DNA of 64,000 nt from an uncultured Gammaproteobacteria bacterium (GTDB lineage Bacteria > Patescibacteriota > Patescibacteriia > UBA9934): positions 31,777-95,776 of the forward strand of contig CAYHFQ010000003.1 of assembly GCA_964355955.1 (NCBI GenBank). The letters run 5' to 3'. The notes beneath the pieces are model-generated. The model was not told the DNA's origin and ran no database searches. It saw only the letters and a program-made list of their open reading frames with translations. Shown piece after piece: positions 1,181 through 37,581 of this stretch (its first letter is position 1; each line of letters begins with the position of its first letter). Made by a program: the position numbers and the translations under genes.

Positions 1181-1298
1181 ACTCCGCCAGCTTAGCTTGG
1201 TTATGTATAAAGCATAGAGAATTCAACTCTAATGTCAAGATGATCATAATTGACCCATTAAATAAGGCTTATATTATATCGAGCAATATGCTAAAATC

Positions 1299-2111
1299 TT
1301 GAAAAAGCAAAATATGAAAATAATATCTCTCAACATTTTTCGCGGACATGAATTCGACGCACTGCTAAAGTTTTGCACCGAGCAGGCGGCGTCGACGGAT
1401 GTGTTTTGTTTGCAAGAGGTGCTCAGTAATCCCAAGGAGGATATGTCTTCCCTGCCCTATGAAGGACGGGCGAATTTTTTGGAAGAGTTGCGGCGGGCGC
1501 TGCCTGAGTTTGCGGGTATTTTTGCACCTGGGCAAGAGGATTTTGATATGACGACGGACTATGAGGGACAGTTGTTGATGGGTAATGCGATTTTGTATAA
1601 GAAAGAATTAGAGGTGACTGGGCAAGGTAGCTTTTTTATTTATAATGAGTTTAATAGTTACGATGGCAAGGATTTTGAGACGCTCGGCCATAACGCGGTG
1701 TACATCGAGCAGGGCGGAGTGACGATCGTGACGCTGCATGGTAATTCGCAACCGGGGAGTAAGCGGGATACGCCGAAGAGGTTGGCGCAGTCGCAAAGAG
1801 TACTCGACTTTTTAGTGGTAAGAGCTGGCGAGAAGATAGTGCTGGGCGATTTTAATCTGATGCCTGAAACTGAATCGATTAAAATGTTTGAACGAGCTGG
1901 TTATCGTAATCTGGTGGTCGAGCATAAAATAACGACCACCCGCGGAACCAACCACCGAAAGATCTCGCCGGAGTACGCCAACACGCCAGAGGGGTACCAA
2001 GAGTTCGCTGATTATACGTTCACGACGCCGGGCGTAAAGGTGACGAGCTTCGAGGTGCCAGACCTCCCCCTGTCCGACCACTTGCCGATGATACTGGAAT
2101 TCAACGTGTAG
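1299..2111 (+). CDS. Endonuclease/exonuclease/phosphatase (EEP, DNase I-like) family protein.
   Basis: 270 aa with EEP-type motifs GDFNLMPE and LSDHLPM at the C-terminus. Confidence 0.7.
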   Translation: MKKQNMKIISLNIFRGHEFDALLKFCTEQAASTDVFCLQEVLSNPKEDMSSLPYEGRANFLEELRRALPEFAGIFAPGQEDFDMTTDYEGQLLMGNAILYKKELEVTGQGSFFIYNEFNSYDGKDFETLGHNAVYIEQGGVTIVTLHGNSQPGSKRDTPKRLAQSQRVLDFLVVRAGEKIVLGDFNLMPETESIKMFERAGYRNLVVEHKITTTRGTNHRKISPEYANTPEGYQEFADYTFTTPGVKVTSFEVPDLPLSDHLPMILEFNV

Positions 2112-2240: not shown

Positions 2241-3326
2241 ATGAAAATATTCCTACTTGCCCTCGCGTTGTTTGCTGTGCCGAGTGTCACTTTTGCTGCC
2301 GTTAGCGCACCAAATAGCCTGACAATCTCCCCAGGCCAGTACACGAACGATACTACGCCGACTTTCAGCTGGAGTGCACCAAGCGGGGCGACTTGGTATG
2401 ACGTCGCGGTTGATGCTGGTGGGTACAGCGGGATTGGCAATGTGCTGAGTTATACGCTACCCACACAAGCAAATGGCTGGCATACCTTCTACGTACGAGC
2501 TCACGACAATAGCAATGCCGTCAGCGGGAGTAACGCGCTAACATTCGAGATCGATACCGTCGGCCCAACAGTCTCACGAGTTTCAATCTCAAAAGCGACC
2601 GCTAATGTGCCAACCACGGTGTCCGTCAGCACGTCTGGTGAATCTGCCGTAGCTTCCTGCCGTTTGATGATCGACCATATCAACCTGGCCGATATGACCA
2701 AAAATGGCGACACTTGGAGTGCTAATTACGCCTTTGCCGCCGTTGGCAACGCTGGCTCCGGCACAGTGCAGGCGGCTGTGAGCTGTACCGATGGCGATGG
2801 TAATTCCACGCTCGGAGCTAGCCGCACAGTGACAGTGACAGGCTACACGGTAGCTGAAGCCTACGCTGGCGATAGAATTAAGACGGCTTGTGGCAGTAAC
2901 GTCAGAAAGAGCGATGCCTGTCATGCCGTGTACTACTTGGGCGCCGATGGCAAACGTCACGCCTTCCCCACCGAAGCCGTCTATTACACTTGGTACAGCA
3001 ACTGGAGCGGCGTCAAAACTGTCAGCCAGGCGTTCATGTCGACGTTGTCGCTAGGCAAGAATGTGACTTTGCACCCAGGTACCGCGCTGGTGAAGTTTAC
3101 GAGTACGAACGAGGTTTACGCCGTCAGTCGTGGCGCTGTATTGCACCACTACTTAACCGAGGCGCTGGTAAAAGCCGACTACGGCAACAACTGGCAAGCA
3201 TCGCTTGTGTCCGTGTCTGCAGTGCTACGCGGCAATTACTCGATTGGTAGCGTGATTGACTCGACCAGCGATTACGATGCGGCTACGGCGAAGGCTGCGG
3301 TGACGAGTATTGATAGTAATTTTTAG
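2241..3326 (+). CDS. Secreted protein with a signal peptide and Ig-like/fibronectin-like repeats.
   Basis: The track ORF runs 2214..3326. Internal ATG 2241 gives MKIFLLALALFAVPSVTFA (signal peptide) with AGGG 5 nt upstream. The body is rich in TPTFSWSAP / Thr-Val-Ser beta-repeats. Confidence 0.55.
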   Translation: MKIFLLALALFAVPSVTFAAVSAPNSLTISPGQYTNDTTPTFSWSAPSGATWYDVAVDAGGYSGIGNVLSYTLPTQANGWHTFYVRAHDNSNAVSGSNALTFEIDTVGPTVSRVSISKATANVPTTVSVSTSGESAVASCRLMIDHINLADMTKNGDTWSANYAFAAVGNAGSGTVQAAVSCTDGDGNSTLGASRTVTVTGYTVAEAYAGDRIKTACGSNVRKSDACHAVYYLGADGKRHAFPTEAVYYTWYSNWSGVKTVSQAFMSTLSLGKNVTLHPGTALVKFTSTNEVYAVSRGAVLHHYLTEALVKADYGNNWQASLVSVSAVLRGNYSIGSVIDSTSDYDAATAKAAVTSIDSNF

Positions 3327-3394
3327 AGTGTTGACGGCTCTTGATTCTTGTTACTGACTATGATACATTAAAGGTAGAAGAAGTAAGACCTCCT

Positions 3395-3442
3395 GCGTTG
3401 GGTTACCGGATGGTAACCCGTTAAAGCAGGGGGCTTTTTTTT
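3395..3442 (+). terminator. Hairpin cluster plus T-run downstream of the secreted-protein gene.
   Basis: GGTTACC-ggat-GGTAACC hairpin, then AAAGC-aggggg-GCTTT followed by TTTTTTTT at 3433-3442. Confidence 0.4.
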
Positions 3443-4097
3443 ATTTAAAAAGCAATTTTTCGGCAATTATTTTACTCTCAATCAAATCATAAAAAGGCAT
3501 TGTGGCGAATTCATATTTCCTGAATATTGCCCAAGATATGAAATCCACAGCTTGGAGTGATTTGTTCTGATAAGAGGCATGAAGCCGCACCTTGAACTTC
3601 TCTGGACGTCGCTTTTGCATGGCAGCAGTGAGATGCTTCACAAATCTTTCTTCCAATGACTTTTTTGTATCTTTACGATCGATAACTAAATCAATGTCTT
3701 CACCAGACTCGATGATACCTTCGTCGTGCAAATGGCCGAGCAGAACATTGGCCGCGTAGGTGTATAAATAATGTTTTTGATTTTGCAGATCTACATAAAC
3801 TTTGTCCTTGTTGAGGACAATAGTCATGATTTTAATATCATCACATTCTTTGATTAACTGGAGCATTTTGTTACGAGTGACATCCTGCTCTTTTGAGGCA
3901 TGTAGTTCTCCTCCATGCTTGTATTTTTTATGAAGTGATTTCCACACCTTTTTAACTATTCTTTCAAGACAACGTTCGTCCTTAACGATAGCAATGGTAA
4001 TCAAAAACCACTTACTAGATCTTTCCGCAAACCCTAAATCGCCGCTCTCGTCGAGAAAGATATAAGCTATGTGGTCTATTCTATCATTGAGGTGATA
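3441..4097 (-). CDS. DUF3800-family protein. The reading frame extends upstream of the TTG given in the track, and that extension contains the hallmark YIFLDESGDLGF motif; no ATG/GTG/TTG start is present in the extension.
   Basis: I extended the frame by hand from the track ORF (3441..4004) to the in-frame stop at 4098-4100. The extension encodes YHLNDRIDHIAYIFLDESGDLGFAERSSKWFLITIAIV. This is an AT-rich islet of about 40% GC. Confidence 0.5.
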   Translation of the reverse strand, partial: YHLNDRIDHIAYIFLDESGDLGFAERSSKWFLITIAIVKDERCLERIVKKVWKSLHKKYKHGGELHASKEQDVTRNKMLQLIKECDDIKIMTIVLNKDKVYVDLQNQKHYLYTYAANVLLGHLHDEGIIESGEDIDLVIDRKDTKKSLEERFVKHLTAAMQKRRPEKFKVRLHASYQNKSLQAVDFISWAIFRKYEFATMPFYDLIESKIIAEKLLFK

Positions 4098-4140
4098 TCA
4101 GGAGCAATGTTGATTATGATGAGAGTTGATAATATTTTCT

Positions 4141-4185
4141 GTGGATAAGTGGTCTACATTCAATGTATACGTTGAATGTAGACCA
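4141..4185. repeat. Hairpin family copy 2: GTGGATAAG-TGGTCTACATTCAA-tgtatacg-TTGAATGTAGACCA followed by GAATTTTTT.
   Basis: The 5' 23 nt are identical to copy 1, including the DnaA-box-like TGTGGATAA. The inner stem differs from copy 1 with compensatory changes (ATTCAA/TTGAAT versus GTCAAA/TTTGAC). A T-run follows on the plus strand. The element overlaps the last codons of the 4160..4675 gene. Confidence 0.7.
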
Positions 4186-4675
4186 GAATTTTTTGAGCAA
4201 CATCAGCTGGCGAAAGTGAATTCGTGTCGAGGACGGTGGCGGAGGGACGGGTGGGGATGAGTTTGGAGATAAGTTCCCAGGAACGTTGGGCTTTGTCGAT
4301 GGAGAAAACGCCGGAGCTGTAACCGCGGGTGGCGCCGCGTTCCAGGAGAGTACGATTGTCGCACCAGAGAATGAATTCGTGGACGCTGGCGTCAAATTTT
4401 GCGGCAACGGTGATGAGCTGATCGATGACTTCCCCGTCGAAGAACATTTTGTCGATGATGACGTCACGACCGTCGGCGAAACAGGTTTCCATGATGCCGA
4501 GAGCGAGGGTCAGCGAGAAATAAAAACTTTTTTGACGGTCTAGCTCGTAGCCACTAATACAACGGCGCAACACGTCGAGTTCGAGGTGAAAAGAGCCGGG
4601 CAATTCGTGGTGTAAGAGAGCAGCGGTGGTCGACTTCCCTACTCCCCACGGACCGTTGATAATAACTAGTTTCAT
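4160..4675 (-). CDS. P-loop NTPase, small kinase-like (AAA_33/zeta-toxin-like fold).
   Basis: Walker A motif GPWGVGKST at residues 8-16; 171 aa. Confidence 0.55.
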   Translation of the reverse strand: MKLVIINGPWGVGKSTTAALLHHELPGSFHLELDVLRRCISGYELDRQKSFYFSLTLALGIMETCFADGRDVIIDKMFFDGEVIDQLITVAAKFDASVHEFILWCDNRTLLERGATRGYSSGVFSIDKAQRSWELISKLIPTRPSATVLDTNSLSPADVAQKILVYIQRIH

Positions 4676-4680
4676 AACAG

Positions 4681-4689
4681 TGGTATAAT
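4681..4689 (+). promoter_or_regulatory. Extended -10 element TGgTATAAT, 9 nt upstream of the ATG at 4699, implying a leaderless or near-leaderless transcript.
   Basis: TGGTATAAT at 4681-4689. Only 23 nt separate the divergent start codons at 4675 (minus) and 4699 (plus). Confidence 0.4.
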
Positions 4690-4698
4690 GACAGTAAT

Positions 4699-4938
4699 AT
4701 GAAGAAATCGCTCGCTAGTGAGGAACGCGAATTAGTGGAAGAGATCAGCAAGACCCGTAAAGTTTACGTCGATTCCATTAAAACAAGCAAGCGGTTAATG
4801 CATCGCCTGTTGGACGGGATCGTGTATGGTTTTGGCATCGCGATTGGTGGTACGGTAGTTTTCGGGATTGTGATTTTTATTGGGTCGAGAATTATTTTGC
4901 CGCTGTTGCCAGCTTGGTTGGCGAATTTGACACAATAA
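4699..4938 (+). CDS. Small membrane protein, DUF5665-like (79 aa).
   Basis: Charged N-terminus followed by hydrophobic GIVYGFGIAIGGTVVFGIVIFIG. Confidence 0.5.
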   Translation: MKKSLASEERELVEEISKTRKVYVDSIKTSKRLMHRLLDGIVYGFGIAIGGTVVFGIVIFIGSRIILPLLPAWLANLTQ

Positions 4939-6463: not shown

Positions 6464-6937
6464 TTATTTCTTCTTCTTCCCCACTGCGCCAAGTTTTCGC
6501 AACTCTTCCGCGAAAGTAGCAACGTCTTCGAAGGAGTGATAGACGCTGGCGTAACGGATGTAAGCAACTTTGTCGAAGCTACGAAGTTGCTCCATGAGAA
6601 TGGCGCCGATTGAGCGGCTGGTGATTTCGCTACCTCTCCCCTTTTGAATTTCGCGTTCAATGGTGTGGACAAGAGTGCGGAATTGGACGTCGGTGTAGGG
6701 GCGCTTCTCTAAAGATTTTTTGAGGCCACTTTCGATTTTTTCGCGATTGTAGGATTCGCGTCGACCGTTACGCTTGACCACAGTGACGTCGAGGATTTCG
6801 ATTTCTTCCACGGTCGAAAAACGAAAAGCACATTTGGCCTTCTCGCATTCCCGGCGGCGGCGCACCGTCAAGCTGTCGGCCGAAAGTCGAGAATCGATCA
6901 CCCTCGTCGATTTTCCACTACAGACAGGACAGAACAT
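6464..6937 (-). CDS. nrdR: Transcriptional repressor NrdR.
   Basis: N-terminal zinc ribbon MFCPVCSGKSTRVIDSR plus an ATP-cone. 157 aa. Abuts ftsZ. Confidence 0.9.
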   Translation of the reverse strand: MFCPVCSGKSTRVIDSRLSADSLTVRRRRECEKAKCAFRFSTVEEIEILDVTVVKRNGRRESYNREKIESGLKKSLEKRPYTDVQFRTLVHTIEREIQKGRGSEITSRSIGAILMEQLRSFDKVAYIRYASVYHSFEDVATFAEELRKLGAVGKKKK

Positions 6938-6938
6938 A

Positions 6939-8273
6939 CTACATCATCTTGCGACGGATAAACGCTGGAATGCCAAGCTCGTCGTCGTCATCTTTTTTAG
7001 GTTGGGCTTGGACTTGGGCTGGTTGCTGCGGTGTTGGTGGCGTGTAGACGGGAATCTGCTGACGAGGGTCTTCTTCGTAAGGGTCGTGAGCTGGCTGTGG
7101 CCTTAGTTCTGGAGCGCGAGTTGGAGATGAAGAGATGGTTGGGGCGGCTGGCACACGGCGCTCGGCGAACGGTGATTCTTTCACAGCCATGACCGGCATG
7201 TAGCTATTGCGAGGTGGCACAGCAGGAGTGGAACGATAATCATCACGACGTGGGGCGTTCCAGCTGCTTTGTGGCGTGATTTCGACGTCGCCGGCGAGGG
7301 ACGGAGCGCGGCGGTGGTCACGGTTGTCAAAGCCGGTAGCCACGACGGTGATGCGAACTTCGTCTTGCAAAGTCTCGTCGATGTTGGCACCAAAGATAAC
7401 ACGGGCGTCTTCGTCGGCCGAACCGGTGATAATTTTGGCGGCTTCGGCGACTTCGTACATGGCGAGGTCCGCACTGCCGGTGACGGTGAAGAGAATGCCC
7501 TTGGCGCCGTCGATGGAAAGTTCGAGCAATGGCGAAGCGATGGCTTGCTTGGCAGCTTCAACGGCGCGGTTCTCGCCCGAGGCCCGGCCGATGCCCATGA
7601 GGGCGCTACCAGCGTTTTGCATGATTGCTTTGACGTCCGCGAAATCGACGTTGATGAGGCCTGGGATAGTGATGATTTCGGAAATCCCCTGCACGCCTTG
7701 GCGGAGCACGTCGTCGACAATTTTGAAGGCGTCGAGGAGCGAAGTTTTCTTGTCGATAATTTGCAACACGCGGTCGTTCGGAATGGTGATGACGGTGTCG
7801 ACCTGGGCGCAGAGTTCGGCGTAGGCTTCGTCGGCAATACGTTTGCGCTGCGCACCCTCAAAACCGAATGGTTTGGTGACAACAGCCACAGTAAGCGCAC
7901 CAACCTCGCGGGCGATTTTAGCAATCTCTGGAATGGCGCCACTACCGGTACCACCACCCAAACCACAAGTGAGGAAGACCATGTCGGCCCCGGCGATAGC
8001 TGTCCTAATGTCGTTGGCGTTTTCTTCCGCGGCGCGACGACCAACTTCCGGATTCATGCCAGCACCCAAACCACGAGTAGCGGTTTTGCCGATAGGGATT
8101 TTGGTCAGCGCTAAGTTGGCATGAAGCGCTTGAGCGTCTGTGTTGACGGCAATGAAGTCGACGCCGCGCAACTTCTCCAAGATCATGCGGTTGAGCGCTG
8201 AGCCACCACCGCCGCCAACGCCGATGACTTTGATTTTGGCAGCGGTTTCGATTTCCGGTTTAAATTCGGCCAT
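6939..8273 (-). CDS. ftsZ: Cell division protein FtsZ.
   Basis: GGGTGSG tubulin signature and full FtsZ core, followed by a Pro-rich C-terminal linker and the conserved C-terminal peptide DELGIPAFIRRK. Confidence 0.95.
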   Translation of the reverse strand: MAEFKPEIETAAKIKVIGVGGGGGSALNRMILEKLRGVDFIAVNTDAQALHANLALTKIPIGKTATRGLGAGMNPEVGRRAAEENANDIRTAIAGADMVFLTCGLGGGTGSGAIPEIAKIAREVGALTVAVVTKPFGFEGAQRKRIADEAYAELCAQVDTVITIPNDRVLQIIDKKTSLLDAFKIVDDVLRQGVQGISEIITIPGLINVDFADVKAIMQNAGSALMGIGRASGENRAVEAAKQAIASPLLELSIDGAKGILFTVTGSADLAMYEVAEAAKIITGSADEDARVIFGANIDETLQDEVRITVVATGFDNRDHRRAPSLAGDVEITPQSSWNAPRRDDYRSTPAVPPRNSYMPVMAVKESPFAERRVPAAPTISSSPTRAPELRPQPAHDPYEEDPRQQIPVYTPPTPQQPAQVQAQPKKDDDDELGIPAFIRRKMM

Positions 8274-8415
8274 AACAATTGATGTTCATCCCCTCCCCTG
8301 AACACTTTAAGTATTCAATTTGGCTAAGCGTAAATAAAATTCTTACTAGCAGCCTAACATAGGAGGAATAAAGTCTCCATTGTGCATGTGGATAACTCGA
8401 CAGAACACCAGAATC

Positions 8416-8568
8416 GTCGCTCGCAACCGCCGTATCTCCTGTTCCTAGCTCAAGGCCTCAGCCCAGAAACACTTACAGAATGACTCGCTTAACGAAAAGC
8501 AAATGCGCGAGTCAAGTGTTTCTCGGGTCGGCCATCGCGTCGTCACACGAGACACGACAGTCGCTCGC
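8416..8568. repeat. Structured intergenic repeat, copy A, upstream of ftsZ. It has the same outer flanks as copy B at 42728 (GTCGCTCGCAACCGCCGTATCTCCTGTTCCTAGC ... GTCGTCACA(C/G)GAGACACG(A/G)CAGTCGCTCGC) but a different inner nested hairpin.
   Basis: Direct alignment of 8416-8450 and 8540-8568 with 42728-42762 and 42835-42864. The inner part contains a 12-bp stem CCCAGAAACACTT/AAGTGTTTCTCGGG enclosing an 8-bp stem TGACTCGC/GCGAGTCA. Confidence 0.6.
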
Positions 8569-8595: not shown

Positions 8596-8629
8596 GAAAA
8601 CAAAACCGGTCTGCCACGAGGGACAGACC
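8596..8629 (-). terminator. Rho-independent terminator downstream of paralog 1. On the minus strand it reads GGTCTGTCCCTCGTGGCAGACC followed by GGTTTTGTTTTC.
   Basis: 7-bp stem plus a U-run on the sense (minus) strand. Near-identical architecture at 9536..9569. Confidence 0.6.
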
Positions 8630-8663
8630 AGTTAGGGTGACGCTTTTGCCGTCGACGGCCGAG

Positions 8664-9374
8664 CTAGGAGGGCTCGGGTTCGGGGTGAGGGTTGGTGTCG
8701 GGCGGGATGATGGTGTGGCCGAGCGAGATGTGCTCGACGTCGATGGGCGGATGCCAGGCCAAGATGGCCATGAAGCGCGCGAGGTGATCGGCTACCTGCT
8801 CGACCGTGACGTAACCGTTCGCCTCCCAGTCCGTCTGCTGGTCGGCGCTGAGCCTCTGCAACTCGACGAGCAAAGTGCTGCGCCGGAGGTGATCGATGTC
8901 AGCCATGAGCTTCTTGATCACGTCGCAACGCGGTTCCCAGCTGATGGTCGAGAACTCGTGTCGCTCCCGACAGTGGCGACAGGGTTGACCGGCCAGGATG
9001 TTGATCACCCGTTCCTCAGAACACAGGAGTTCTTCGATCTCCTGAGCAGGGCTGGGTGGTGCCGGCGGAGCGCCGAGATCGATGATGAAGACTTCTCCAC
9101 CGAAAGCGGCCATGATCGCGACGAAGTCCAGGTAGCCGTCGTTGGCGTCTTCATCACCGTCTGCTTCTTCCTGGTCGTCGAACTTCGCCTGACCGAGCTG
9201 GCCTTTCGCGTCGACCTCGAAGGTACCGACTTGGACGTCATCCTCGTTGGTCAACGGGTAGATGCCAGGCGGCAACAGTTGGCCGAGAACATCCTCGCCG
9301 TAGCTGACCCAGCCCTCGGCGTCGACGGTGACGTCCCACCACCGATCGTTGAATTTGAAAGAAAATGAACGCAT
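8664..9374 (-). CDS. Tandem-paralog family member 1 (236 aa), hypothetical and acidic. Motifs PPGIYPLTNEDD...GTFEV, GQPCRHCRERH and ARFMAILAWHP.
   Basis: ORF translation aligned by eye to the other four full-length paralogs. GAGGAG lies 8 nt upstream of the ATG. Confidence 0.6.
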   Translation of the reverse strand: MRSFSFKFNDRWWDVTVDAEGWVSYGEDVLGQLLPPGIYPLTNEDDVQVGTFEVDAKGQLGQAKFDDQEEADGDEDANDGYLDFVAIMAAFGGEVFIIDLGAPPAPPSPAQEIEELLCSEERVINILAGQPCRHCRERHEFSTISWEPRCDVIKKLMADIDHLRRSTLLVELQRLSADQQTDWEANGYVTVEQVADHLARFMAILAWHPPIDVEHISLGHTIIPPDTNPHPEPEPS

Positions 9375-9535
9375 GACGCTCCTCTGCCCCGTAATGGGGA
9401 CTTGCTTGGGTGGTAGACGAGTTGGCTTTTGGCCGACTCATAGCGACTTCTTCCGGCGAAAAAGACGGTGGGAGGCGGCGAAAATGAGTTGTTATAGTGC
9501 CATGAAATTTAGAAAATGTCAATGATTGACGCCCT

Positions 9536-9569
9536 GAAAACAAAACCAGCCTGCCACGAGGGACAGACT
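9536..9569 (-). terminator. Rho-independent terminator downstream of paralog 2. On the minus strand it reads CAGTCTGTCCCTCGTGGCAGGCTG followed by GTTTTGTTTTC.
   Basis: Same loop CCCTCGTGG and the same U-run as the 8596 terminator. Confidence 0.6.
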
Positions 9570-9604
9570 GATTGAGGTGACGCGCGAACCGCGTCGACGA
9601 TGGG

Positions 9605-10264
9605 CTACGAGGGCTGAACTTCCTCTGCCGGGGTGTCGAAGAGCTTCTTGACGAGCAGCTCAGGCTCCTTGACCTTGGGCTGCTCCGACTGCCAGTGGTT
9701 CAGAGCCCGGAGGCGAAGCGCGGCGCCGTGGGCCTCGGCGTGGTTCGCGAAGTGGAAGTAGGCGAGCGACTCTGGCGGCGTGGTCACTCGTGCCAGATGG
9801 TCGAGGATGCCGAGCGACGAACGAGCGATCTCGAAGCGCAGCTGCCGCTGGAAGTCCACCCGCCACTCATACGCCGTGATATGTGGCATTTCGCCCAGGC
9901 CGTGGCGCTGACCGCAGAGGCGGCAGGGCTTGCCGTCGAGGCTGTCGGCGTGACACTCGAGGCTGTGCAGCAAGTCGAGAAAGGCGTAGGCACCGCCGGC
10001 CAACGGAGTGGTGTTGTCTGGCTCTGGCTCCGTGCGATGCGTGTTGGGAGTGGTTCCGATGACCAGGCCCGGCTTGTGTTCGACATTGACCGAGAAGCGA
10101 CCATGCTGGACCAACCGGCTGTCCAGTGCGTGCAGGTAGTAGGTGCCGGCCGGCAACTTGACGTCGCCGAGCACGATGACCGGCTGATCTTTCGTGATCA
10201 TGACCGTGAAGGTGCGGCCCGTAGCATCCGTGACGTGAAAAAACTGTGGCGCTAACGTTGACAT
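9605..10264 (-). CDS. Tandem-paralog family member 2 (219 aa). Motifs PAGTYYLHALD...GRFSV, DGKPCRLCGQRH and AALRLRALNHWQ.
   Basis: ORF translation and motif alignment. Confidence 0.6.
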   Translation of the reverse strand: MSTLAPQFFHVTDATGRTFTVMITKDQPVIVLGDVKLPAGTYYLHALDSRLVQHGRFSVNVEHKPGLVIGTTPNTHRTEPEPDNTTPLAGGAYAFLDLLHSLECHADSLDGKPCRLCGQRHGLGEMPHITAYEWRVDFQRQLRFEIARSSLGILDHLARVTTPPESLAYFHFANHAEAHGAALRLRALNHWQSEQPKVKEPELLVKKLFDTPAEEVQPS

Positions 10265-10324
10265 GTTGTGCTCCGGCCCGGGTGGGCAGGTGGTGGGGAG
10301 AGCCAGCCGGAATGACTGGTGGCC

Positions 10325-10354
10325 GGATAGTGCCTGAGATTGGCGGAAAAGGCA
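10325..10354 (-). promoter_or_regulatory. Conserved paralog promoter motif. Sense strand: TTGCCT-N17-CACTAT.
   Basis: Reverse complement of 10321-10357 is AAAACTTGCCTTTTCCGCCAATCTCAGGCACTATCCGGCC, which aligns to the motif upstream of the other paralogs. Confidence 0.4.
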
Positions 10355-10468
10355 AGTTTTGAGGGAAAAGAAAAGACTGACGCCTCCGGAGTACGGAGCG
10401 CGCCAGTCAGATGCCGATGAGTGTCGCCACCGGCCGCGTGGTCAACCTATGACCATGGGGATGACCGA

Positions 10469-10741
10469 CTACTTGCCGGGAGGAGGGTTGGTGGACGGGA
10501 GGGGCGGGAGACCGCTGGGACGGCGGGCGGGGCCAGTGGCTTGTCCGCGCTCAACCTCGAACTCGCGTCCGAGAGCGTCATTCTCGAGGATGTAGACGCC
10601 AGATCTCGGCATATCCGAGAAATTGCTAACCTCGCCGTCGGGAGCCACGGTGCACTTCAACCTGAAGGAACCGTGAGCCGCCACCATCCGAACGCCAGCT
10701 TTTGCCTTGTCCTGTGCCATCTGCTTCTTACCTTTGCCCAT
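10469..10741 (-). CDS. Truncated paralog carrying only the N-terminal domain (RSGVYILENDALGREFEV), with a low-complexity tail.
   Basis: Shares the P/S-G-x-Y-x-L motif with the full-length paralogs. Has its own copy of the promoter motif upstream. Confidence 0.4.
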   Translation of the reverse strand: MGKGKKQMAQDKAKAGVRMVAAHGSFRLKCTVAPDGEVSNFSDMPRSGVYILENDALGREFEVERGQATGPARRPSGLPPLPSTNPPPGK

Positions 10742-10806
10742 TGAAGGGACTTTGGAGGGTTGCTAGGAACCTGCTGACCGCCAGAGCGACGGCCGAACAG
10801 AGCCTG

Positions 10807-10835
10807 TTTATACCAGATTGGCCGTAATTGGGCAA
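10807..10835 (-). promoter_or_regulatory. Paralog promoter motif. Sense strand: TTGCCC-N17-TATAAA.
   Basis: Reverse complement of 10793-10838 is ACTTGCCCAATTACGGCCAATCTGGTATAAACAGGCTCTGTTCGGCC. Confidence 0.4.
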
Positions 10836-10838
10836 GTA

Positions 10839-11078
10839 TCAGCCGCCCCGCACCGCCACGCCGGCAGGGATCTGCAAGGCCGAATTGGCCAGGGCCTGCT
10901 GGAGTGGGGTAATAGCCTGCCCGATTTTGTCGCCGTCGACCATGAAGGTGCGGTGGTCGGCCAGCGTGTAGAGGCCGGACTTGAGCTTCACCCCGGGCCG
11001 AGGAGTGACGTTACCCTGAGGATCGAGGCTGACTTCGACGTGGTGGAGGCCGCTGTGCGCAAACATGGTGACGGTCAT
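10839..11078 (-). CDS. Truncated paralog with only the N-terminal domain. The likely start is the internal ATG (MTVTMFAHSGL...KSGLYTLADHRTFMVDGD).
   Basis: The track ORF is 10839..11153, but the conserved promoter motif lies at 11144-11172, i.e. inside that N-terminal extension, so the ATG at 11078 is preferred. Confidence 0.35.
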   Translation of the reverse strand: MTVTMFAHSGLHHVEVSLDPQGNVTPRPGVKLKSGLYTLADHRTFMVDGDKIGQAITPLQQALANSALQIPAGVAVRGG

Positions 11079-11143
11079 GACGATGTCCTTTTTTTTGACG
11101 GTGCTGGGGATTTGAGACTGCCAGAGTAGCAGGCCCGAAAACG

Positions 11144-11172
11144 ATAGTCTCATAGCTTAGCCAAAAAAGCAA
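11144..11172 (-). promoter_or_regulatory. Paralog promoter motif. Sense strand: TTGCTT-N17-GACTAT.
   Basis: Reverse complement of 11131-11185 aligns to the family motif (...TTTTTTGGCTAAGCTATGAGACTATCG...). Confidence 0.35.
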
Positions 11173-11245
11173 GATTAGACTCTATCAAAAAGCAAAACTA
11201 GCACCCCCGGAGAGAGGATGTTAGTCGAGGCGGGCCGCAGTAGAG

Positions 11246-11866
11246 CTACGGCGCAGGAGAAGAGGTTGAGGATTCGGTTGGCTGCCAGGCCAAGAGGGCG
11301 CGGAGGCGGGCGAGTTGGATCTCGGCCTCGGCCTGGGTGGTCAGGCCGGCGCGAGCAAGGAGCTCAGGAGTACCGTTGACCAAATTCTGGACACGCAGCT
11401 CAACCCCACGCTGTACATACCCGGCGATGTAAGTCTGGAAATTGGCCAACAGCTTCTCTGCGGTAATAGCGACGTCCTCAGGAAAATGTTGTTTGTGACA
11501 ATTCCTGCAGGGCTTACCGTCGAGTGCGTCGACCATCTCTTCTAAAGTGGTCAAAGTCTGATTGAATAGTTCAGACGGCGTCAGGAACTCGTCGGGCGTG
11601 GCGCCGGTACTGGTCCCGATGTTGAGGGCGACGATGACAGTGGCCCGAAGTCGGCGCCACTCGGTCACAGTGTGGATTTGGCGGTCAATCTGACCCTCGG
11701 TAATGGTGATGGTGCCGAACGGCCTACCACCAGCAGTTGTGAGGTTGTAGACACCATCCGGAAGTGTGAGGTTGGCTGGGGGGAAGAACTCCACCAGTTC
11801 GTTGATCCTGACAATAGTGGAGAAGGGGCCGCAGGTGATGACGAAGGCCAAAGTTTTAGGCTGCAT
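11246..11866 (-). CDS. Tandem-paralog family member 3 (206 aa). Motifs PDGVYNLTTAGGRPFGTITI, DGKPCRNCHKQH and LARLRALLAWQP.
   Basis: ORF translation and motif alignment. Confidence 0.6.
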   Translation of the reverse strand: MQPKTLAFVITCGPFSTIVRINELVEFFPPANLTLPDGVYNLTTAGGRPFGTITITEGQIDRQIHTVTEWRRLRATVIVALNIGTSTGATPDEFLTPSELFNQTLTTLEEMVDALDGKPCRNCHKQHFPEDVAITAEKLLANFQTYIAGYVQRGVELRVQNLVNGTPELLARAGLTTQAEAEIQLARLRALLAWQPTESSTSSPAP

Positions 11867-11913
11867 GTTCTTCCTCTTGGTATGACGACGACCGGAATGG
11901 CCGACTCGGGAGA

Positions 11914-11942
11914 ATGGTGCTTGAGATTAGCGAAAAAGTCAA
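11914..11942 (-). promoter_or_regulatory. Paralog promoter motif. Sense strand: TTGACT-N17-CACCAT, followed by CTCCCGAGTCGGCC.
   Basis: Reverse complement of 11900-11945 is GTTGACTTTTTCGCTAATCTCAAGCACCATTCTCCCGAGTCGGCC. Confidence 0.45.
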
Positions 11943-12064
11943 CCGAGCTCAGCTCGGCTGTTGGTTCGCGACCAAAGCTCAGCTTTGGAGAAAACCTAAT
12001 AAAAAGGAAAACTGGCACCCCCCCCGGGAATTCTATCGGGGAGCGCCAGTCGAGGCGAAGAAGG

Positions 12065-12685
12065 CTAGGTGGTGGCGGATTCGACGATGAGCTCGGCGGG
12101 CTGCCAGGCCAGGAGGGCGCGGAGGCGCAGAAGTTGAATGGCGAGCTTGGAAATGTTCGGCAGACCGAGAGCCTCGAGATCCGCTTGGGACATGTCGATC
12201 ATGGTCCTGAGCCGCAGTTCCCCGTCGAACTCGAGATCACGACCGAGCTCAGTGCGGAACTTGGCCAAGGCCCAGTCACGAGTCACCCCTCGCGAGACGA
12301 GACTAGAGTCGATGATGATCTTCCCATCGATGTAGTCGCGTAAGGCTTCCAGGGACATGAGGTGTTGGTCGTACTGATCTGACGAAGATTGAGCTGGTGC
12401 TGGACCGAAGATGTGATTCAACATGTCACTTAAGGTGTTGAAGTAGTCATCCAAGGCCGACGTGGGCTCGTCGTCAAAGAGCATAGCGTGGCTCGGGAGA
12501 CCGTTCAGGACCGTGAAGTGGCCGTGTTGGCCGTAGCCGCCTTCGGTCAGAGTGTAGAGACCGTCCTCAAGGACGATGTTCGAGGACACGGTGACTTCGC
12601 CTTCCTCGCTGACCATGACGACGCGTTTGTTGGCTGCTGGGCCGGTGGCGGTGTATTGGAAAGGGCCTGGGGGTTTGGTGAACAT
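12065..12685 (-). CDS. Tandem-paralog family member 4 (206 aa). Motifs EDGLYTLTEGGYGQHGHFTV and LLRLRALLAWQP. The Cys motif is replaced by DGKIIIDSS.
   Basis: ORF translation and motif alignment. Confidence 0.6.
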   Translation of the reverse strand: MFTKPPGPFQYTATGPAANKRVVMVSEEGEVTVSSNIVLEDGLYTLTEGGYGQHGHFTVLNGLPSHAMLFDDEPTSALDDYFNTLSDMLNHIFGPAPAQSSSDQYDQHLMSLEALRDYIDGKIIIDSSLVSRGVTRDWALAKFRTELGRDLEFDGELRLRTMIDMSQADLEALGLPNISKLAIQLLRLRALLAWQPAELIVESATT

Positions 12686-12748
12686 GAGGTGCCCGATGCT
12701 CTGTGGAGAGCTGTGGGAGGTGGCGCGGCGAGATGGCCGAACGCGACG

Positions 12749-12777
12749 ATTGTGTTAGAGATTGGCCGAGAAGTCAA
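12749..12777 (-). promoter_or_regulatory. Paralog promoter motif. Sense strand: TTGACT-N17-CACAAT.
   Basis: Reverse complement of 12735-12782 is GGCAGAAAGTTGACTTCTCGGCCAATCTCTAACACAATCGTCGCGTTCGGCC. Confidence 0.45.
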
Positions 12778-12867
12778 CTTTCTGCCTGTAAAAAGCAAGA
12801 TCGACACCGCCCGTGAGGGTGAGGTGCCGATCGAGGTCACACGGGAGCGCCGTGTGAGAGTGGCCTG

Positions 12868-13557
12868 CTAGGCCTGGGGGTTGACGCCTTCCCCCGTGTT
12901 GGTGGAGGCCGGCGGGGGCTGGTTGGTGTCGGTGGAGTTGTCCGTGGGCTTGGCGGTCTGCGGCGTGTTGGCGCTGCTCCAGGTGAGGAGGGCGTTGAAG
13001 CGGTCCATGGTCCTCGCGATCGCATCCCGGTTCTTGAAGCCGACGCCCTGGATGACCTCGTCGGGCTCATCGAGGAGCTCGAGCAGCTTGTCGACCAAGC
13101 CGTTTGTACGGTGGTATTCGATGCCCTCCTGGACCCATGCGGTGAGCTCGGCAGGCGTGTGTCCCTGCTCGGCAGGGTCATGCACCTGGCCGCAACGAGG
13201 ACAGGCCTGACCGCTGAGGATCGACTCGATGACGAACTCGAACAAGAAGAAATCACTCACGATGGACGCGGCCGCAGTCATCGGCTCGAGGTTGATGCGC
13301 ACCTCGATGATGCTGTGCCGCGGCTCGGGCTTGGCAGCCATGGCCTTGGACCAGTCGACGTGCGCGAGGCCGATGTGGCCACCGCGGGTTTCGAAGGAGC
13401 CGAACACCTGGTTGTCGTCACCGACCAGGGTGAAGACGGCGTTCCTCGGGAGCGTGATGCCTTCGGACGGCGTCACAGTGCCATCGCTGGCGATGGTGAC
13501 CGTCACCTGGGTGTTATTGTCCTTGCCGTAGAAGGCGCGGAAGGTACGTTTTTCCAA
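12868..13557 (-). CDS. Tandem-paralog family member 5 (229 aa; TTG start). Motifs RNAVFTLVGDDNQVFGSFE, GQACPRCGQVH and RFNALLTWS.
   Basis: ORF translation. AAGGA lies 8 nt upstream of the TTG start. Confidence 0.55.
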   Translation of the reverse strand: MEKRTFRAFYGKDNNTQVTVTIASDGTVTPSEGITLPRNAVFTLVGDDNQVFGSFETRGGHIGLAHVDWSKAMAAKPEPRHSIIEVRINLEPMTAAASIVSDFFLFEFVIESILSGQACPRCGQVHDPAEQGHTPAELTAWVQEGIEYHRTNGLVDKLLELLDEPDEVIQGVGFKNRDAIARTMDRFNALLTWSSANTPQTAKPTDNSTDTNQPPPASTNTGEGVNPQA

Positions 13558-13626
13558 CTTGATCCTTGAATCCCCTAATGGGGCGTATTGAATTTGAGAC
13601 TACCGGAAATGGTCGACTCGGGGAGG

Positions 13627-13655
13627 ATTGTGCCTGATGTTGGCGAAAAAGTCAA
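13627..13655 (-). promoter_or_regulatory. Paralog promoter motif. Sense strand: TTGACT-N17-CACAAT, followed by CCTCCCCGAGTCGACC.
   Basis: Reverse complement of 13610-13658 is GGCTTGACTTTTTCGCCAACATCAGGCACAATCCTCCCCGAGTCGACC. Confidence 0.45.
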
Positions 13656-13658
13656 GCC

Positions 13659-14096
13659 TTAGAGACCAATGTTGGCTTTGGCGCCCAGATATTGGCCGCG
13701 GTTAGGAAAGTTGGTTTTAACAAGATTTATAAAGGTTTCCGAGAAGCCTTTGGTGGCTAGTTGGCTGATTGGTACAAATTCTACGGAATTAATTTTTTCC
13801 GTGTCTAGACCAGCAATAGCGCCCAATTCCCCACCGACTTGGCTACAGAGAAAGGTGATGTGGAGGAGATGCTTGTCAGGCAAAATGTTGTCGCAAAGGT
13901 AGAGAAGGCTACCAATCGTGACAGTTAAGCCAGTTTCCTCCTGCACTTCGCGAAGCAACGCAGCCTCGAGTGTCTCCCCTTCTTCCACTTTGCCACCGGG
14001 TAACGACCACTTGCGGCTGGATTCTGTGTTTTGTTGAAGAAGAAGCAATGAATCGTTCTCGATGATGAGGGCGGTGACACGAATGTTGATGGACAT
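13659..14096 (-). CDS. NUDIX hydrolase.
   Basis: NUDIX box GGKVEEGETLEAALLREVQEETGL. Confidence 0.8.
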   Translation of the reverse strand: MSINIRVTALIIENDSLLLLQQNTESSRKWSLPGGKVEEGETLEAALLREVQEETGLTVTIGSLLYLCDNILPDKHLLHITFLCSQVGGELGAIAGLDTEKINSVEFVPISQLATKGFSETFINLVKTNFPNRGQYLGAKANIGL

Positions 14097-14103
14097 ACTT
14101 TTT

Positions 14104-14131
14104 ACTTAAAAGCGGGACATGACTGCCCCGC
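14104..14131 (-). terminator. Terminator downstream of ftsA. On the minus strand it reads GCGGGGCAGTCATGTCCCGC followed by TTTTAAG.
   Basis: 8-bp GC-rich stem plus a U-run on the minus strand. Confidence 0.5.
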
Positions 14132-14143
14132 CTGATGTTTAAG

Positions 14144-14177
14144 GCCCCCTCCTAACTCCCCCATAGCTGGGGGAGAG
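14144..14177. repeat. 35-nt GC-rich palindromic element (E1), plus-strand form CCCCCTCCTAACTCCCCCATAGCTGGGGGAG. It is intergenic, immediately 3' of the ftsA stop.
   Basis: Near-identical copies at 18850, 30285 and 60268 and a degenerate copy at 17095. It contains the 8-bp hairpin CTCCCCCA/TGGGGGAG. Confidence 0.65.
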
Positions 14178-14184
14178 TTTTCGT

Positions 14185-15441
14185 TTAAGGCACCATGGAT
14201 TTGAACCACTGGCCGATTTTGTTGGCCACTTGGTCCACGGATTTGAATTTGCTAAAGAATTTACCGAACTTGTTAGTGTGCATGCCTTTGATGGCATAAC
14301 CCCAAACGGCCAAGCCGATGGCCGTGGCAAAGGCCGGGTCGTGAACTTCGTCAATTACGCTGCTGATGGTGACGGGAATGCCCAAAGCACAAGGCAAACG
14401 GAGCACGCGGCGAGCGACGTCGACCATGCCGTCGAGCTTAGCTCCCCCACCGGTGAGGATAACGCCAACGGGCAACATGCCGGAACGGTCTACCTTGCGC
14501 AGTTCAGCGTCGACAGCTTCGAATAGTTCTTCGACGCGGCTCTCAATAATCTCCGCAATGAAACGACGCTTCACCACCTCGTCCACGTCGGCCCCCATGT
14601 CTTTGAGGCTGAAGGTGTGCTTGCGATCCACAGCGTCAGGAACTGCGTGACCAAACTCCATTTTTACTTTCTCCGCAATTTCTGGCGGAATGCGCAAAAT
14701 GGTACCGATGTCGGAAGTGATGCGGTCGCCACCAATTGGCAGGACGGCGGTGTGCATTAAGTCCCCTTCTTCGAAAATGGCGATGGAGGTGGAGCTGGCA
14801 CCGATGTTGACCACGCACACGCCGAGTTCTTTTTGACGTTGGGTGAGAACGGCTTCGGCGGTGGCGAGTGGCGCGTAAACCAAGTCGTCAATGTCGAGGC
14901 CGGTGCGATAAATGCTCTTGGTCAAGTTTTTAATATGTGAGGCGAGGGCCTGAATGATGACAGCGTCCACTTCTAAACGAATGCCGTTCATGCCGACGGG
15001 ATCCTTCACGCCGCGCTGACCGTCGACAGTAAAGCTCTTGGGGATAACGTGCAAAATTTCGTAGTTGGAAGGTGTGGTGACGCCTTTAGCTGCTTCCATG
15101 GCACGTTCGACGTCGTCGTCCTTAATTTCGCCGTCGGGACGAGTGACGCCAATGACGCCCCGAGTTTCTTGGACGAGAATATTTTGGCCAGCAATAGAAA
15201 CCCAAGCGGCGTTAAGGGGCAAACCGGTCATGCGTTCGGCGCGTTCCAGGGCTTTGCTGACGGCAGAAACGGCTTCTTCCATGCTGCTAACAGTGCCTTT
15301 ATGCACACCAGCCGACGGCAAAGCAACCGCACCAATAATGTGCAGGCGAGGCTTACCGTCTTCACCCGGGAGGGGCTGGGCGACAGCAATACGAATCATC
15401 GAAGAGCCGATGTCGAGACCAATGATACTTCCTTCAGCCAT
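14185..15441 (-). CDS. ftsA: Cell division protein FtsA.
   Basis: Actin-like ATPase fold motifs (IGLDIGSS, the VNIGASSTSIAIF region, ILTGGGA). 418 aa. Confidence 0.95.
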   Translation of the reverse strand: MAEGSIIGLDIGSSMIRIAVAQPLPGEDGKPRLHIIGAVALPSAGVHKGTVSSMEEAVSAVSKALERAERMTGLPLNAAWVSIAGQNILVQETRGVIGVTRPDGEIKDDDVERAMEAAKGVTTPSNYEILHVIPKSFTVDGQRGVKDPVGMNGIRLEVDAVIIQALASHIKNLTKSIYRTGLDIDDLVYAPLATAEAVLTQRQKELGVCVVNIGASSTSIAIFEEGDLMHTAVLPIGGDRITSDIGTILRIPPEIAEKVKMEFGHAVPDAVDRKHTFSLKDMGADVDEVVKRRFIAEIIESRVEELFEAVDAELRKVDRSGMLPVGVILTGGGAKLDGMVDVARRVLRLPCALGIPVTISSVIDEVHDPAFATAIGLAVWGYAIKGMHTNKFGKFFSKFKSVDQVANKIGQWFKSMVP

Positions 15442-37410: not shown

Positions 37411-37581
37411 AGCTAAATTTGGGTATTAACACCAGGTACTTCTTCCGCCCAACCGAGGTACCAATCAGCTAATTTTTGGATAACAGTAGTGTATTGCATA
37501 TATATTTAGAAGATACCATAGAACCAAGCCAAGGAAAATGTGTTTGATTATTTAGTCTGACAGGGCTATTCTTCTATCACT

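Follow-up and report, generated by a model that had tools for sequence, protein, structure and literature searches.

The 64-kb window analysed here (the whole stretch of DNA, 64,000 nucleotides) comes from a ~1.09 Mb metagenome-assembled genome (MAG) of Candidatus Uhrbacteria, which belongs to the Patescibacteria, or candidate phyla radiation (CPR). On its minus strand, between ftsA and ftsZ, it carries an array of seven co-oriented genes of one protein family (positions 8596-13655; Table 1), five of which encode proteins of 206-236 aa and two an N-terminal domain only. Sequence comparisons show this array as a copy-number-variable set of apparently self-contained cassettes, built from a sigma-70-like promoter, a leader, one open reading frame (ORF) and a terminator-like hairpin, and encoding an orphan family that seems restricted to Patescibacteria. 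The same comparisons show, as far as sequences can tell, how the cassettes change: copies are duplicated or lost, gene conversion makes the 5' ends alike, and internal deletions or chimeras give rise to N-domain-only genes.

An earlier reading of this DNA, made from the sequence alone, had described seven head-to-tail paralogues, and all of the ORFs are where it placed them. Its observation that the block, together with a NUDIX gene, separates ftsA from ftsZ likewise agrees with our coordinates, as does its impression that the block is GC-richer than its surroundings: GC content is 59.9% in the array and 52.5% in the rest of the window, and GC at third codon positions (GC3) is 0.69-0.87 in the array genes versus 0.51-0.69 in neighbouring genes. 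The plus strand carries long antisense ORFs across the array, a usual by-product of such high coding-strand GC3. DNA-level tandem or simple-sequence repeats were not found in the array region (TRF). Of the two short genes, for which ~80-90 aa had been proposed, paralogue 5 has a longest ORF (10469-10741) that yields 90 aa from its first start and 83 aa from the start at 10720. The longest ORF of paralogue 4 (10839-11153) overlaps its own promoter; a start at 11078, behind an AAGGA Shine-Dalgarno sequence, is the likely one and gives 79 aa. Metagenome gene calls for the two genes are 79 and 83 aa.

Upstream of each of the seven genes lie a TTG(A/C)nn element, 17 nt of spacer and a hexamer that resembles a -10 element (CACAAT, CACTAT, CACCAT, GACTAT or TATAAA). 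Most copies continue after the -10 element into a leader block, (C)CGAGTCGGCCATT(T)CCGG, also written GAGTCGGCCATT(T)CCGG; the GAGTCGGCCATTCCGG block is part of this 60-nt promoter-leader. A position weight matrix (PWM) built from six copies detects no further site in the window (true copies score 31-42, the next best 15), and across related loci totalling 1.3 Mb, every site that a wider PWM finds lies upstream of a family gene. The most divergent copies of the motif are those at 9522 and 10835. The ~45-nt motif that the sequence-only reading took for a promoter is thus real and array-specific, but it appears to be more than a promoter because it includes the leader block.

Several further readings of this block were considered. 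A leader hairpin of 4-5 bp pairs in 78.8% of cells, versus 10-49% with slid partner columns, and 165 of 500 shuffles equal that value; RNAalifold gives no structure for the leader RNA, covariation does not support the hairpin, and the region has no Rfam match. Dyads in the promoter spacer (GCC-N7-GGC, TGGC-N8/9-GCCA) were dropped as operators or hairpins, since arms of 3-4 bp are expected by chance, and a sigma-54 promoter is ruled out by the wrong GG-to-GC spacing, judged from the sequence. Scans of wider DNA collections with the promoter motif returned chance matches only: the sole match in viral_contigs is a high-GC phage coding region, and two metagenome matches fall inside FDLFANLR, which we take to be a leuB coding motif. 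An inverted element between the last terminator and ftsZ (8509-8550) resembles the cassette spacer, -10 element and leader (TCAAGTGTTTCTCGGGTCGGCCATCGCGTCGTC) and is also conserved upstream of ftsZ in the related locus L082. It may be what remains of an inverted cassette, or else act as an antisense promoter or a shared operator.

GC-rich hairpins followed by T-runs lie downstream of six of the seven genes, the exception being paralogue 4, which adjoins the next promoter. The sequence-only reading had noted near-identical terminators after its first two copies; two near-identical pairs are present, 8604-8633 with 9544-9573 and ~12001-12049 with 11187-11220. This arrangement supports the prediction that the cassettes are separate transcription units, with paralogues 4 and 5 as a pair that may be co-transcribed. 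Two homopolymers, an 8-G run within the terminator stem after paralogue 2 (12011-12030, minus strand) and an 8-A run just before the Shine-Dalgarno sequence of paralogue 4 (11086-11096, minus strand), are possible slippage sites.

Table 1. Features of the array and its flanks in the window, and contents of the ftsA-ftsZ gap in related loci
Locus	Feature	Position	Strand	Remarks
Window	ftsA	14185..15441	-	Upstream core flank; Pfam SHS2_FTSA and FtsA
Window	NUDIX hydrolase gene	13659..14096	-	Pfam NUDIX, E 1.7e-20; apparently a separate variable insertion in the same gap
Window	Cassette 1 promoter and leader	13597..13655	-	TTGACT/17 nt/CACAAT, then CCCCGAGTCGACCATTTCCGG; PWM 40; repeat family D1
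Window	Paralogue 1, full length, 229 aa	12868..13557	-	TTG start; CxxCxxxH present; external-only profile E 1.2e-35; GC3 0.87
Window	Terminator-like hairpin and T-run after paralogue 1	12790..12836	-	Repeat family D2
Window	Cassette 2 promoter and leader	12720..12777	-	TTGACT/17 nt/CACAAT; promoter scan, PWM, repeat analysis
Window	Paralogue 2, full length, 206 aa	12065..12685	-	Cysteine motif lost; external-only profile E 3.3e-27
Window	Terminator-like hairpin after paralogue 2	12001..12049	-	Repeat family D2; 79% identical to copy after paralogue 3
Window	Cassette 3 promoter and leader	11884..11942	-	TTGACT/17 nt/CACCAT, then TCTCCCGAGTCGGCCATTCCGGTCGTCGTC; PWM 42
Window	Paralogue 3, full length, 206 aa	11246..11866	-	AlphaFold2-modelled; external-only profile E 6.6e-45
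Window	Terminator-like hairpin after paralogue 3	11187..11220	-	D2 reference copy
Window	Cassette 4 promoter and leader	11115..11172	-	TTGCTT/17 nt/GACTAT; PWM 35
Window	Paralogue 4, N-domain only, 79 aa	10839..11078	-	No own terminator; family profile positions 4-63, E 7e-12
Window	Cassette 5 promoter and leader	10775..10835	-	TTGCCC/17 nt/TATAAA; divergent copy; read from sequence
Window	Paralogue 5, N-domain only, 83 aa	10469..10720	-	90 aa if start 10741; family profile positions 3-51, E 4e-5
Window	Terminator-like hairpin after paralogue 5	10366..10410	-	Repeat family D2
Window	Cassette 6 promoter and leader	10294..10355	-	TTGCCT/17 nt/CACTAT; PWM 42
Window	Paralogue 6, full length, 219 aa	9605..10264	-	Positional orthologues P0006 (L081), P0010 (L082)
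Window	Terminator-like hairpin after paralogue 6	9544..9573	-	12-bp stem; repeat D6
Window	Cassette 7 promoter	9461..9522	-	TTGACA/17 nt/CACTAT; long divergent leader; PWM 31
Window	Paralogue 7, full length, 236 aa	8664..9374	-	Very acidic, net charge ~-29, pI 4.3; external-only profile E 5.4e-28
Window	Terminator-like hairpin after paralogue 7	8604..8633	-	49 nt around it 86% identical to copy after paralogue 6
Window	Leader-like relic, inverted	8509..8550	+	TCTCGGGTCGGCCATCGCGTCGTC; inverted repeats I4 and I5
Window	ftsZ	6939..8273	-	Downstream core flank; Pfam Tubulin and FtsZ_C
L081	ftsA-ftsZ gap			NUDIX, then genes of 78, 71 and 211 aa; scaffold N-gap, count may be low
L082	ftsA-ftsZ gap			Seven genes (247, 127, 204, 204, 195, 200, 211 aa) and a dead short-gene copy; NUDIX absent
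ERZ1426836 contig	ftsA-ftsZ gap			5 or more genes: 87, 73, 241, 230, 209 aa
L009	ftsA-ftsZ gap			Single 73-aa N-only gene; no NUDIX
L010	ftsA-ftsZ gap			None
L014	Other cassette family	11258..14537		
L015	Other cassette family	11258..12983		
L016	Other cassette family	6514..8380		
L017	Other cassette family	11258..12477		
L019	Other cassette family	11258..12462		
L053	Gap cargo	1115..2101		MazE antitoxin and PIN toxin
L057	Gap cargo	11222..12242		M50-peptidase-like membrane protein
L012	Gap cargo	2773..4887		Protein of 597-773 aa (as in L025), no family match
L025	Gap cargo	11258..13808		Protein of 597-773 aa (as in L012), no family match

An orphan protein family and its predicted fold

The seven proteins of the window align as one family with pairwise identities of 20-27%. 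A profile built exclusively from 27 proteins of other genomes retrieves six of them among 1,686 six-frame ORFs (E 7e-45 to 3e-6). The seventh (10469-10741) is picked up once the profile covers the full family (E 4e-5), and a short member from a sister genome shares 41% identity with it (E 4e-9); overall, this paralogue 5 shares 41-44% identity with the short genes of loci L081, L080 and L009. Few columns are conserved throughout the family. Its members have in common an N-terminal block, LPxGxYxL...GxFxV, which is all that the short genes carry, and the C-terminal part of the long copies comprises the block G[YF]...LxRLxALLAWxP and then a tail rich in Pro, Ser, Thr and Ala. The motif DGKPCRxCxxxH had been assigned to four of the five long copies; a looser form, [DAS]G[KQ]xC[RP]xCxxxH, is indeed present in four of five, but the exact string occurs in two only (11246-11866 and 9605-10264), with [SA]GQ[AP]C[PR]xCxxxH in 12868-13557 and 8664-9374. 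The one full-length copy said to lack the cysteine motif (12065-12685) does lack its cysteines.

None of the seven proteins matches a curated family in Pfam-A, NCBIfam, PHROGs or PADLOC at E <0.01, Pfam families hit in the scan of 34 family members are never shared by two members, and PDB sequences contain no match to the family. The statement that the family is not a recognised one therefore stands. A word-indexed homology search with paralogue 3 returned the query itself only, from contigs of the source organism. More productive was an exhaustive profile search of 1.84 billion protein representatives, which gave 43 matches; about 30 of these are genuine members of ~200 aa from outside the window, and those that could be traced come from Patescibacteria MAGs or metagenomes. 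The rest are Ig-like repeat proteins that have only a 'DGxYxL' strand motif in common with the family; among those rejected as members are four giant proteins with Ig-like or PKD repeats (P0014, P0020, P0034 and P0036). One match, P0037 (400 aa), has an N-terminus that resembles a signal peptide by eye and four tandem N-domain-like modules (L.LPDG.Y.L.TR.G.G.FGSF.V..GKV); the N-domain module therefore also exists as an apparently extracellular repeat. Phage, plasmid and viral-contig collections contain no relatives of the family.

An AlphaFold2 model of paralogue 3, calculated from a 34-sequence alignment, reaches a predicted local distance difference test score (pLDDT) of 94.4 and a predicted template modelling score (pTM) of 0.87. 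It comprises four strands (residues 6-56), helices 67-87 and 97-115, a cysteine knuckle, and four more helices up to residue 193. According to this model, a full-length member would consist of an N-terminal beta module of four strands that packs against a helical bundle. Comparison of the whole model with PDB and BFVD gave no significant structural match.

The CxxC(G)xxH motif of the family resembles a single zinc knuckle. It is missing in roughly one-third of the aligned members and has been lost repeatedly, so any metal site would be structural and dispensable. Zinc-ribbon Pfam models give no match above noise. As in zinc-ribbon or rubredoxin-type CPxCG knuckles and the HxxxCxxC site of the zinc-binding anti-sigma factors (ZAS), many members carry C-[PR]-x-C-G-x-x-H, with the knuckle between two helices; however, the family has one knuckle only, and its ligand order is the reverse of that in ZAS proteins. 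All but one of the full-length members are acidic (isoelectric points, pI, 4.3-7.2), and the two N-only members of the window have pI values of 8.3 and 9.0. By eye, and with no predictor run, the array members show no signal peptide, transmembrane segment or lipobox.

The ftsA-ftsZ gap in related genomes

We compared the locus with 72 loci obtained by an FtsA-based scan of contigs, with one genome per species. The gene order ybeY-dagK-ftsA-ftsZ-nrdR-pyk is conserved, and most of the 72 loci have a gap of only ~20-300 nt between the ftsA and ftsZ ORFs. Because the two genes are adjacent in most relatives, their separation in the window appears derived, as the sequence-only reading had proposed. 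The comparison also qualifies the proposal: the arrangement is derived among the related loci, yet the array itself seems ancestral to a genus-level clade. Family genes occupy the same site in sister species and other relatives, at copy numbers of 1 (L009), 3 (L081), 7 (L082), 5 or more (ERZ1426836) and 7 (window), and paralogue 7 has no counterpart in L081 or L082. Since the array occupies this site in sister species too and matches the flanks in synonymous divergence (see below), it is apparently not a recent foreign insertion and has probably been inherited vertically since these species split. The NUDIX gene is present in L081 (annotated there as 183 aa) and missing in L082 and L009, and is therefore best read as an independent variable insertion. 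The only 100% FtsA match lies in a Candidatus Uhrbacteria MAG (CAINGB010000025.1), whose contig stops 119 nt after ftsA.

The gap accommodates unrelated genes in other relatives, and from these contents it appears to be an insertion hotspot across Uhrbacteria. A clade with FtsA identities of ~72% has in this gap one to three tandem genes (204-299 aa) that are GC-rich and belong to another, transmembrane family. Its proteins have hydrophobic helices at the N-terminus, and its genes have terminators and a conserved promoter of their own (TTGGCTTTCACTTGCCAAATTTTCATTTTTCTGATTGAATAT). This second cassette family has no Pfam match and was rejected as a homologue of the window family (hhalign probability 0.1%). 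Elsewhere the cargo is a toxin-antitoxin pair, a membrane protein or a large protein (Table 1). Four MAG contigs (L008, L018, L034, L076) stop within 120 nt downstream of ftsA and two more inside ftsA; one of the contigs that stop after ftsA belongs to the genome that represents the window's species in GTDB. Assemblies thus seem to break at a gap that is strain-variable or contains repeats.

The same genome carries a second family locus directly upstream of rplJ-rplL (L006, 8800-11400; ~790-811 kb of the 1.09-Mb contig), with two clear members and one partial one, a related promoter-leader (TTGACTTTTGGCTAGTTT..TGCCAG.AT...CACGAGTTAGCCATTTCGGCC) and similar terminators. The corresponding site in relatives (L087, L089, L090) contains one or two members, and HicAB and HepT-MNT modules are inserted next to rplL there. 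In another Patescibacteria MAG (L005), an N-only gene is followed by a full-length gene, each with its own promoter and with near-identical terminators. In the searchable literature we met no description of the family or of a cassette hotspot between ftsA and ftsZ. Arrays of fast-evolving paralogues in tandem are an already known kind of feature; new here are the family and its fold, its private and ultra-conserved promoter-leader, its position between ftsA and ftsZ in a CPR genome, and the fact that unrelated cassette families use the same gap.

Some neighbouring features stand apart from the array. A third type of tandem array (L006 1-4900, minus strand; L087 1734-4067; L089 95-2647) consists of 5-10 small ORFs (94-164 aa) that share an 'FYD..G' motif and match nothing in Pfam; between them lies a conserved block of ~100 nt (...GGCGGTACCCTCAGAGT...GAGGATTGCGAGGGCATCGCATTCAGC...AGAGGT). 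This array adjoins a MacB-type ABC exporter and differs in copy number between genomes. The window contains another, distant paralogue of the NUDIX gene at 37561-38031 (plus strand). The region upstream of ybeY (18890-28273, minus strand) encodes a protein of 3,127 aa with weak VWA, Big_5 and DUF4215 matches, followed by proteins with TSP3 repeats. Its synteny is kept in L081 and L082; the 3,127-aa protein is probably a giant surface adhesin, and we found no link between this region and the array.

Divergence, recombination and constraint

We estimated nonsynonymous and synonymous divergence (dN and dS; Nei-Gojobori) between the window and the sister-species loci L081 and L082. Flanking genes have dS values of 0.39-0.86 (ybeY higher), dN of 0.008-0.10 and dN/dS of 0.016-0.09. 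The FtsA protein is 99-100% identical between the species (dN/dS 0.016-0.017) and FtsZ 96-97% (dN/dS 0.03-0.06); the NUDIX protein, with 94% identity to that of L081 and dN/dS of ~0.05, also behaves like an ordinary gene product. Paralogue 6 and its positional orthologues P0006 and P0010 share only 43-46% of their residues, with dS of 0.56-0.82, dN of 0.48-0.52 and dN/dS of 0.61-0.85, which bears out the earlier description of the array as diversifying. Protein change in the family is thus ~10-50 times faster than in its neighbours, and as the dS of paralogue 6 equals that of the flanks, the divergence points to vertical descent and away from replacement by foreign alleles. The amino acid excess is spread along the whole gene: windows of 30 codons give dN/dS of 0.5-1.3 without a clear local peak. 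The short gene of the b2 type, compared between L081 and L009, is under clear purifying selection (dN/dS ~0.17).

All orthologues and paralogues examined are intact. When substitution without constraint was simulated at 0.25-0.5 changes per site, comparable ORFs stayed open in only 0.3-7.5% of runs, so the genes are not decaying. The promoter-leader blocks (54-62 nt) are 94-98% identical between species, while synonymous sites of these genomes differ by ~39-50%. For example, the promoter of cassette 3 (11942 type) is 98% identical over 54 nt to two L081 promoters; that of cassette 6 (10355 type) shares 58 of 62 nt with its L081 orthologue, including one 30-nt window at 100%. The divergent promoter-leader of cassette 5 is 90.5% identical to the orthologous upstream region of L081. 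Selection thus appears to keep the ORFs open and the promoter-leader nearly invariant.

Exchange between cassettes is seen most clearly in L082, where cassettes a3 and a5 are 100% identical over ~120 nt spanning terminator, promoter and leader, 97% identical over the first ~100 coding nucleotides, and 50-60% identical thereafter, a pattern that looks like the signature of a gene-conversion tract. In L081, the 78-aa gene b1 combines an 11942-type promoter, a 12065-type N-domain (57% amino acid identity) and an 11246-type C-terminal tail and terminator; in this case at least, an N-only gene must have come about through an internal deletion or as a chimera. Such cases point to continuing recombination between cassettes, and frequent conversion could, if GC-biased, have raised the GC content of the array.

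Possible roles of the cassettes

Comparison with known systems gives partial likenesses. The orphan immunity arrays of polymorphic toxins, including acquired interbacterial-defence islands, also consist of tandem genes in one orientation for small, mostly acidic proteins in which no export signal is visible, and share with the window array strong divergence among paralogues and orthologues, copy-number variation among close relatives and location in a variable island. Unlike them, the window array has no nearby toxin gene, toxin C-terminal cassette or integrase (10 kb on either side in five genomes contain only ybeY, dagK, ftsA, NUDIX, ftsZ, nrdR and pyk), and a conserved promoter-leader and terminator for each gene are unusual for immunity arrays. 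The family has no match to Imm or SUKH-type families.

Phage morons are autonomous promoter-gene-terminator units inserted between two genes. The window cassettes resemble them in having their own promoter and terminator, in lying between two co-oriented genes that are adjacent in relatives, and in their deviant GC content, but they differ in lying outside a prophage, in forming an array of mutual paralogues, in having no phage relatives and in being vertically inherited. With the Mycoplasma vlp and vsp families the array shares tandem paralogues, promoter and 5' regions far more conserved than the rest, and recombination mosaics; it differs in the lack of a visible signal peptide or lipobox, of a simple-sequence tract in the promoter spacer and of an invertible element. 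Tests for a phase-variable surface family gave no TRF simple-sequence repeats, no inverted repeats flanking the promoters and no sign of on/off switching. Integron arrays likewise contain co-oriented single-ORF cassettes, short conserved structured repeats between them and a variable number of cassettes at a fixed chromosomal site. In contrast to these, the window cassettes carry their own promoters, and the hairpins between them are followed by T-runs, as in intrinsic terminators; an attC identity of these hairpins was rejected, as they have no RYYYAAC/GTTRRRY (R''/R') cores. The gene tables list no intI or integrase domain.

Three further assignments were also rejected. A target of a diversity-generating retroelement does not fit, as there is no reverse transcriptase within 10 kb, no long near-identical repeat pair, and divergence is protein-wide. 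A type II toxin-antitoxin module is contradicted by the promoters and terminators that split the genes and by the lack of a Pfam or PADLOC toxin-antitoxin match. An FtsZ or FtsA accessory protein of the ZapA, SepF, EzrA or ZipA kind finds no Pfam match either, and the family is not strictly linked to fts genes.

The reading that we favour, tentatively, is that the cassettes encode intracellular proteins that bind or neutralise partners in a genetic conflict of the immunity, anti-effector or defence type, and that these proteins form a set which is co-regulated and diversifying. It is based on the retained expression signals and fold, the many divergent copies, and the location among conflict-type genes, with MazE-PIN in the same gap of L053 and HicAB and HepT-MNT beside the second locus in relatives. 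An intracellular location is suggested by the absence of an export signal by eye and by the mostly acidic character of the full-length members. The common promoter-leader would make the cassettes one co-regulated set, run by a dedicated factor; each paralogue would deal with its own variant of a partner that changes fast, with competitor or adaptor roles possible for the N-only forms. No cell-division function would be envisaged for the family. Several points weigh against this reading. The analysis turned up no partner, toxin or target, and neither PADLOC nor immunity families give a match; the zinc site is read from a motif that many members do not have; the absence of export signals was judged by eye; and the higher GC content could come from biased gene conversion and reflect nothing functional. 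In addition, dN/dS is below 1 overall and fairly uniform, which fits relaxed constraint equally well, and the comparison comprises three orthologues with near-saturated dS.

It is this uniform dN/dS below 1 that makes relaxed constraint the main rival, an unlikely one in our estimate but the one to be taken most seriously. Under this explanation the high dN/dS would stem from weak purifying selection, with no arms race involved; the proteins would be accessory ones with a lineage-specific, scaffold- or chaperone-like role that tolerates nearly any surface, and array size would drift by neutral unequal crossing-over between the conserved flanks. The near-uniform 0.5-1.3 along the gene, the scarcity of family-wide conserved columns and the repeated loss of the zinc knuckle all agree with it. 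It accounts less well for ORFs that remain open where unconstrained sequence would nearly always gain stops, for the strong constraint on the promoter-leader, and for the retention of many divergent copies instead of one; the low dN/dS of the b2-type short gene, moreover, indicates that constraint is not uniformly weak. We consider it improbable that the proteins are host-interaction effectors of a presumably episymbiotic bacterium, exported by a non-classical route with the tail as export signal and diversified by host co-evolution. The low-complexity tail after the LLAW(Q)P motif, the retention of a paralogue-3-type tail by the chimeric N-only L081b1, the fourfold N-domain module of P0037 behind its signal-peptide-like N-terminus (by eye), and the giant surface proteins ~5 kb upstream in conserved synteny would suit such a role. 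Yet the tail is poorly conserved in sequence, the 10 kb on each side are free of secretion-system genes, and inspection of the array members by eye (no predictor was run) shows neither a signal peptide nor a lipobox nor a transmembrane segment. For the last reason, the surface role that the sequence-only reading had listed beside an immunity-like one is disfavoured.

Two further explanations concern the site itself. Semi-autonomous selfish cassettes, that is, moron-like mobile modules that settle in gaps beside essential genes with little benefit to the host, are a still more doubtful interpretation: their autonomous architecture, atypical GC content, two hotspots beside essential genes (ftsZ and rplJ) and conserved flanks that could act as recombination substrates speak for it, but there is no integrase, transposase or attC-like site within 10 kb on either side, no relative in phage, plasmid or viral-contig collections, and the orthologues match the flanks in dS, a sign of vertical descent as opposed to repeated transfer. 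We think it very improbable that the family modulates cell division by binding FtsZ or FtsA and is sited between their genes for co-expression. Members also lie upstream of rplJ and in unrelated contexts, most Uhrbacteria have no family gene in the ftsA-ftsZ gap, and elsewhere the same gap is filled by unrelated genes (a toxin-antitoxin pair, the transmembrane family, an M50-like protease). Near-neutral change is also hard to square with binding partners that are 96-100% conserved, and the family has no match to ZapA, SepF, EzrA or related families.

Beyond the conflict role that we favour, it is conceivable, though on balance unlikely, that the cassettes belong to an unrecognised Patescibacteria-specific system, in which a regulon with an invariant promoter would drive a hypervariable intracellular repertoire of an unseen fold, for immunity and defence or as symbiosis effectors, and in which the ftsZ and rplJ gaps would be reserved acceptor sites for unrelated cassette families as well. 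If this were true, cassette arrays would be a general mode of diversity generation in ultra-small genomes. CPR (Patescibacteria) genomes measure ~1 Mb and are thought to be streamlined, yet this one gives ~5 kb between two essential division genes, and at least one further locus, to an unrecognised family. The contrast within the array is unusual, in that regulatory DNA is more conserved than the surrounding housekeeping coding DNA, whereas the proteins it drives change at near the synonymous rate. Such a pattern marks genes where selection acts through diversity. In practical terms, the analysis yields an unmatched fold modelled with high confidence, a short DNA motif that serves as a tag for all family members found in the clade, and a defined ftsA-ftsZ hotspot for surveys across metagenomes. 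Genes of this kind are the likeliest places to learn how uncultivated, probably symbiotic bacteria handle hosts, competitors or phages.

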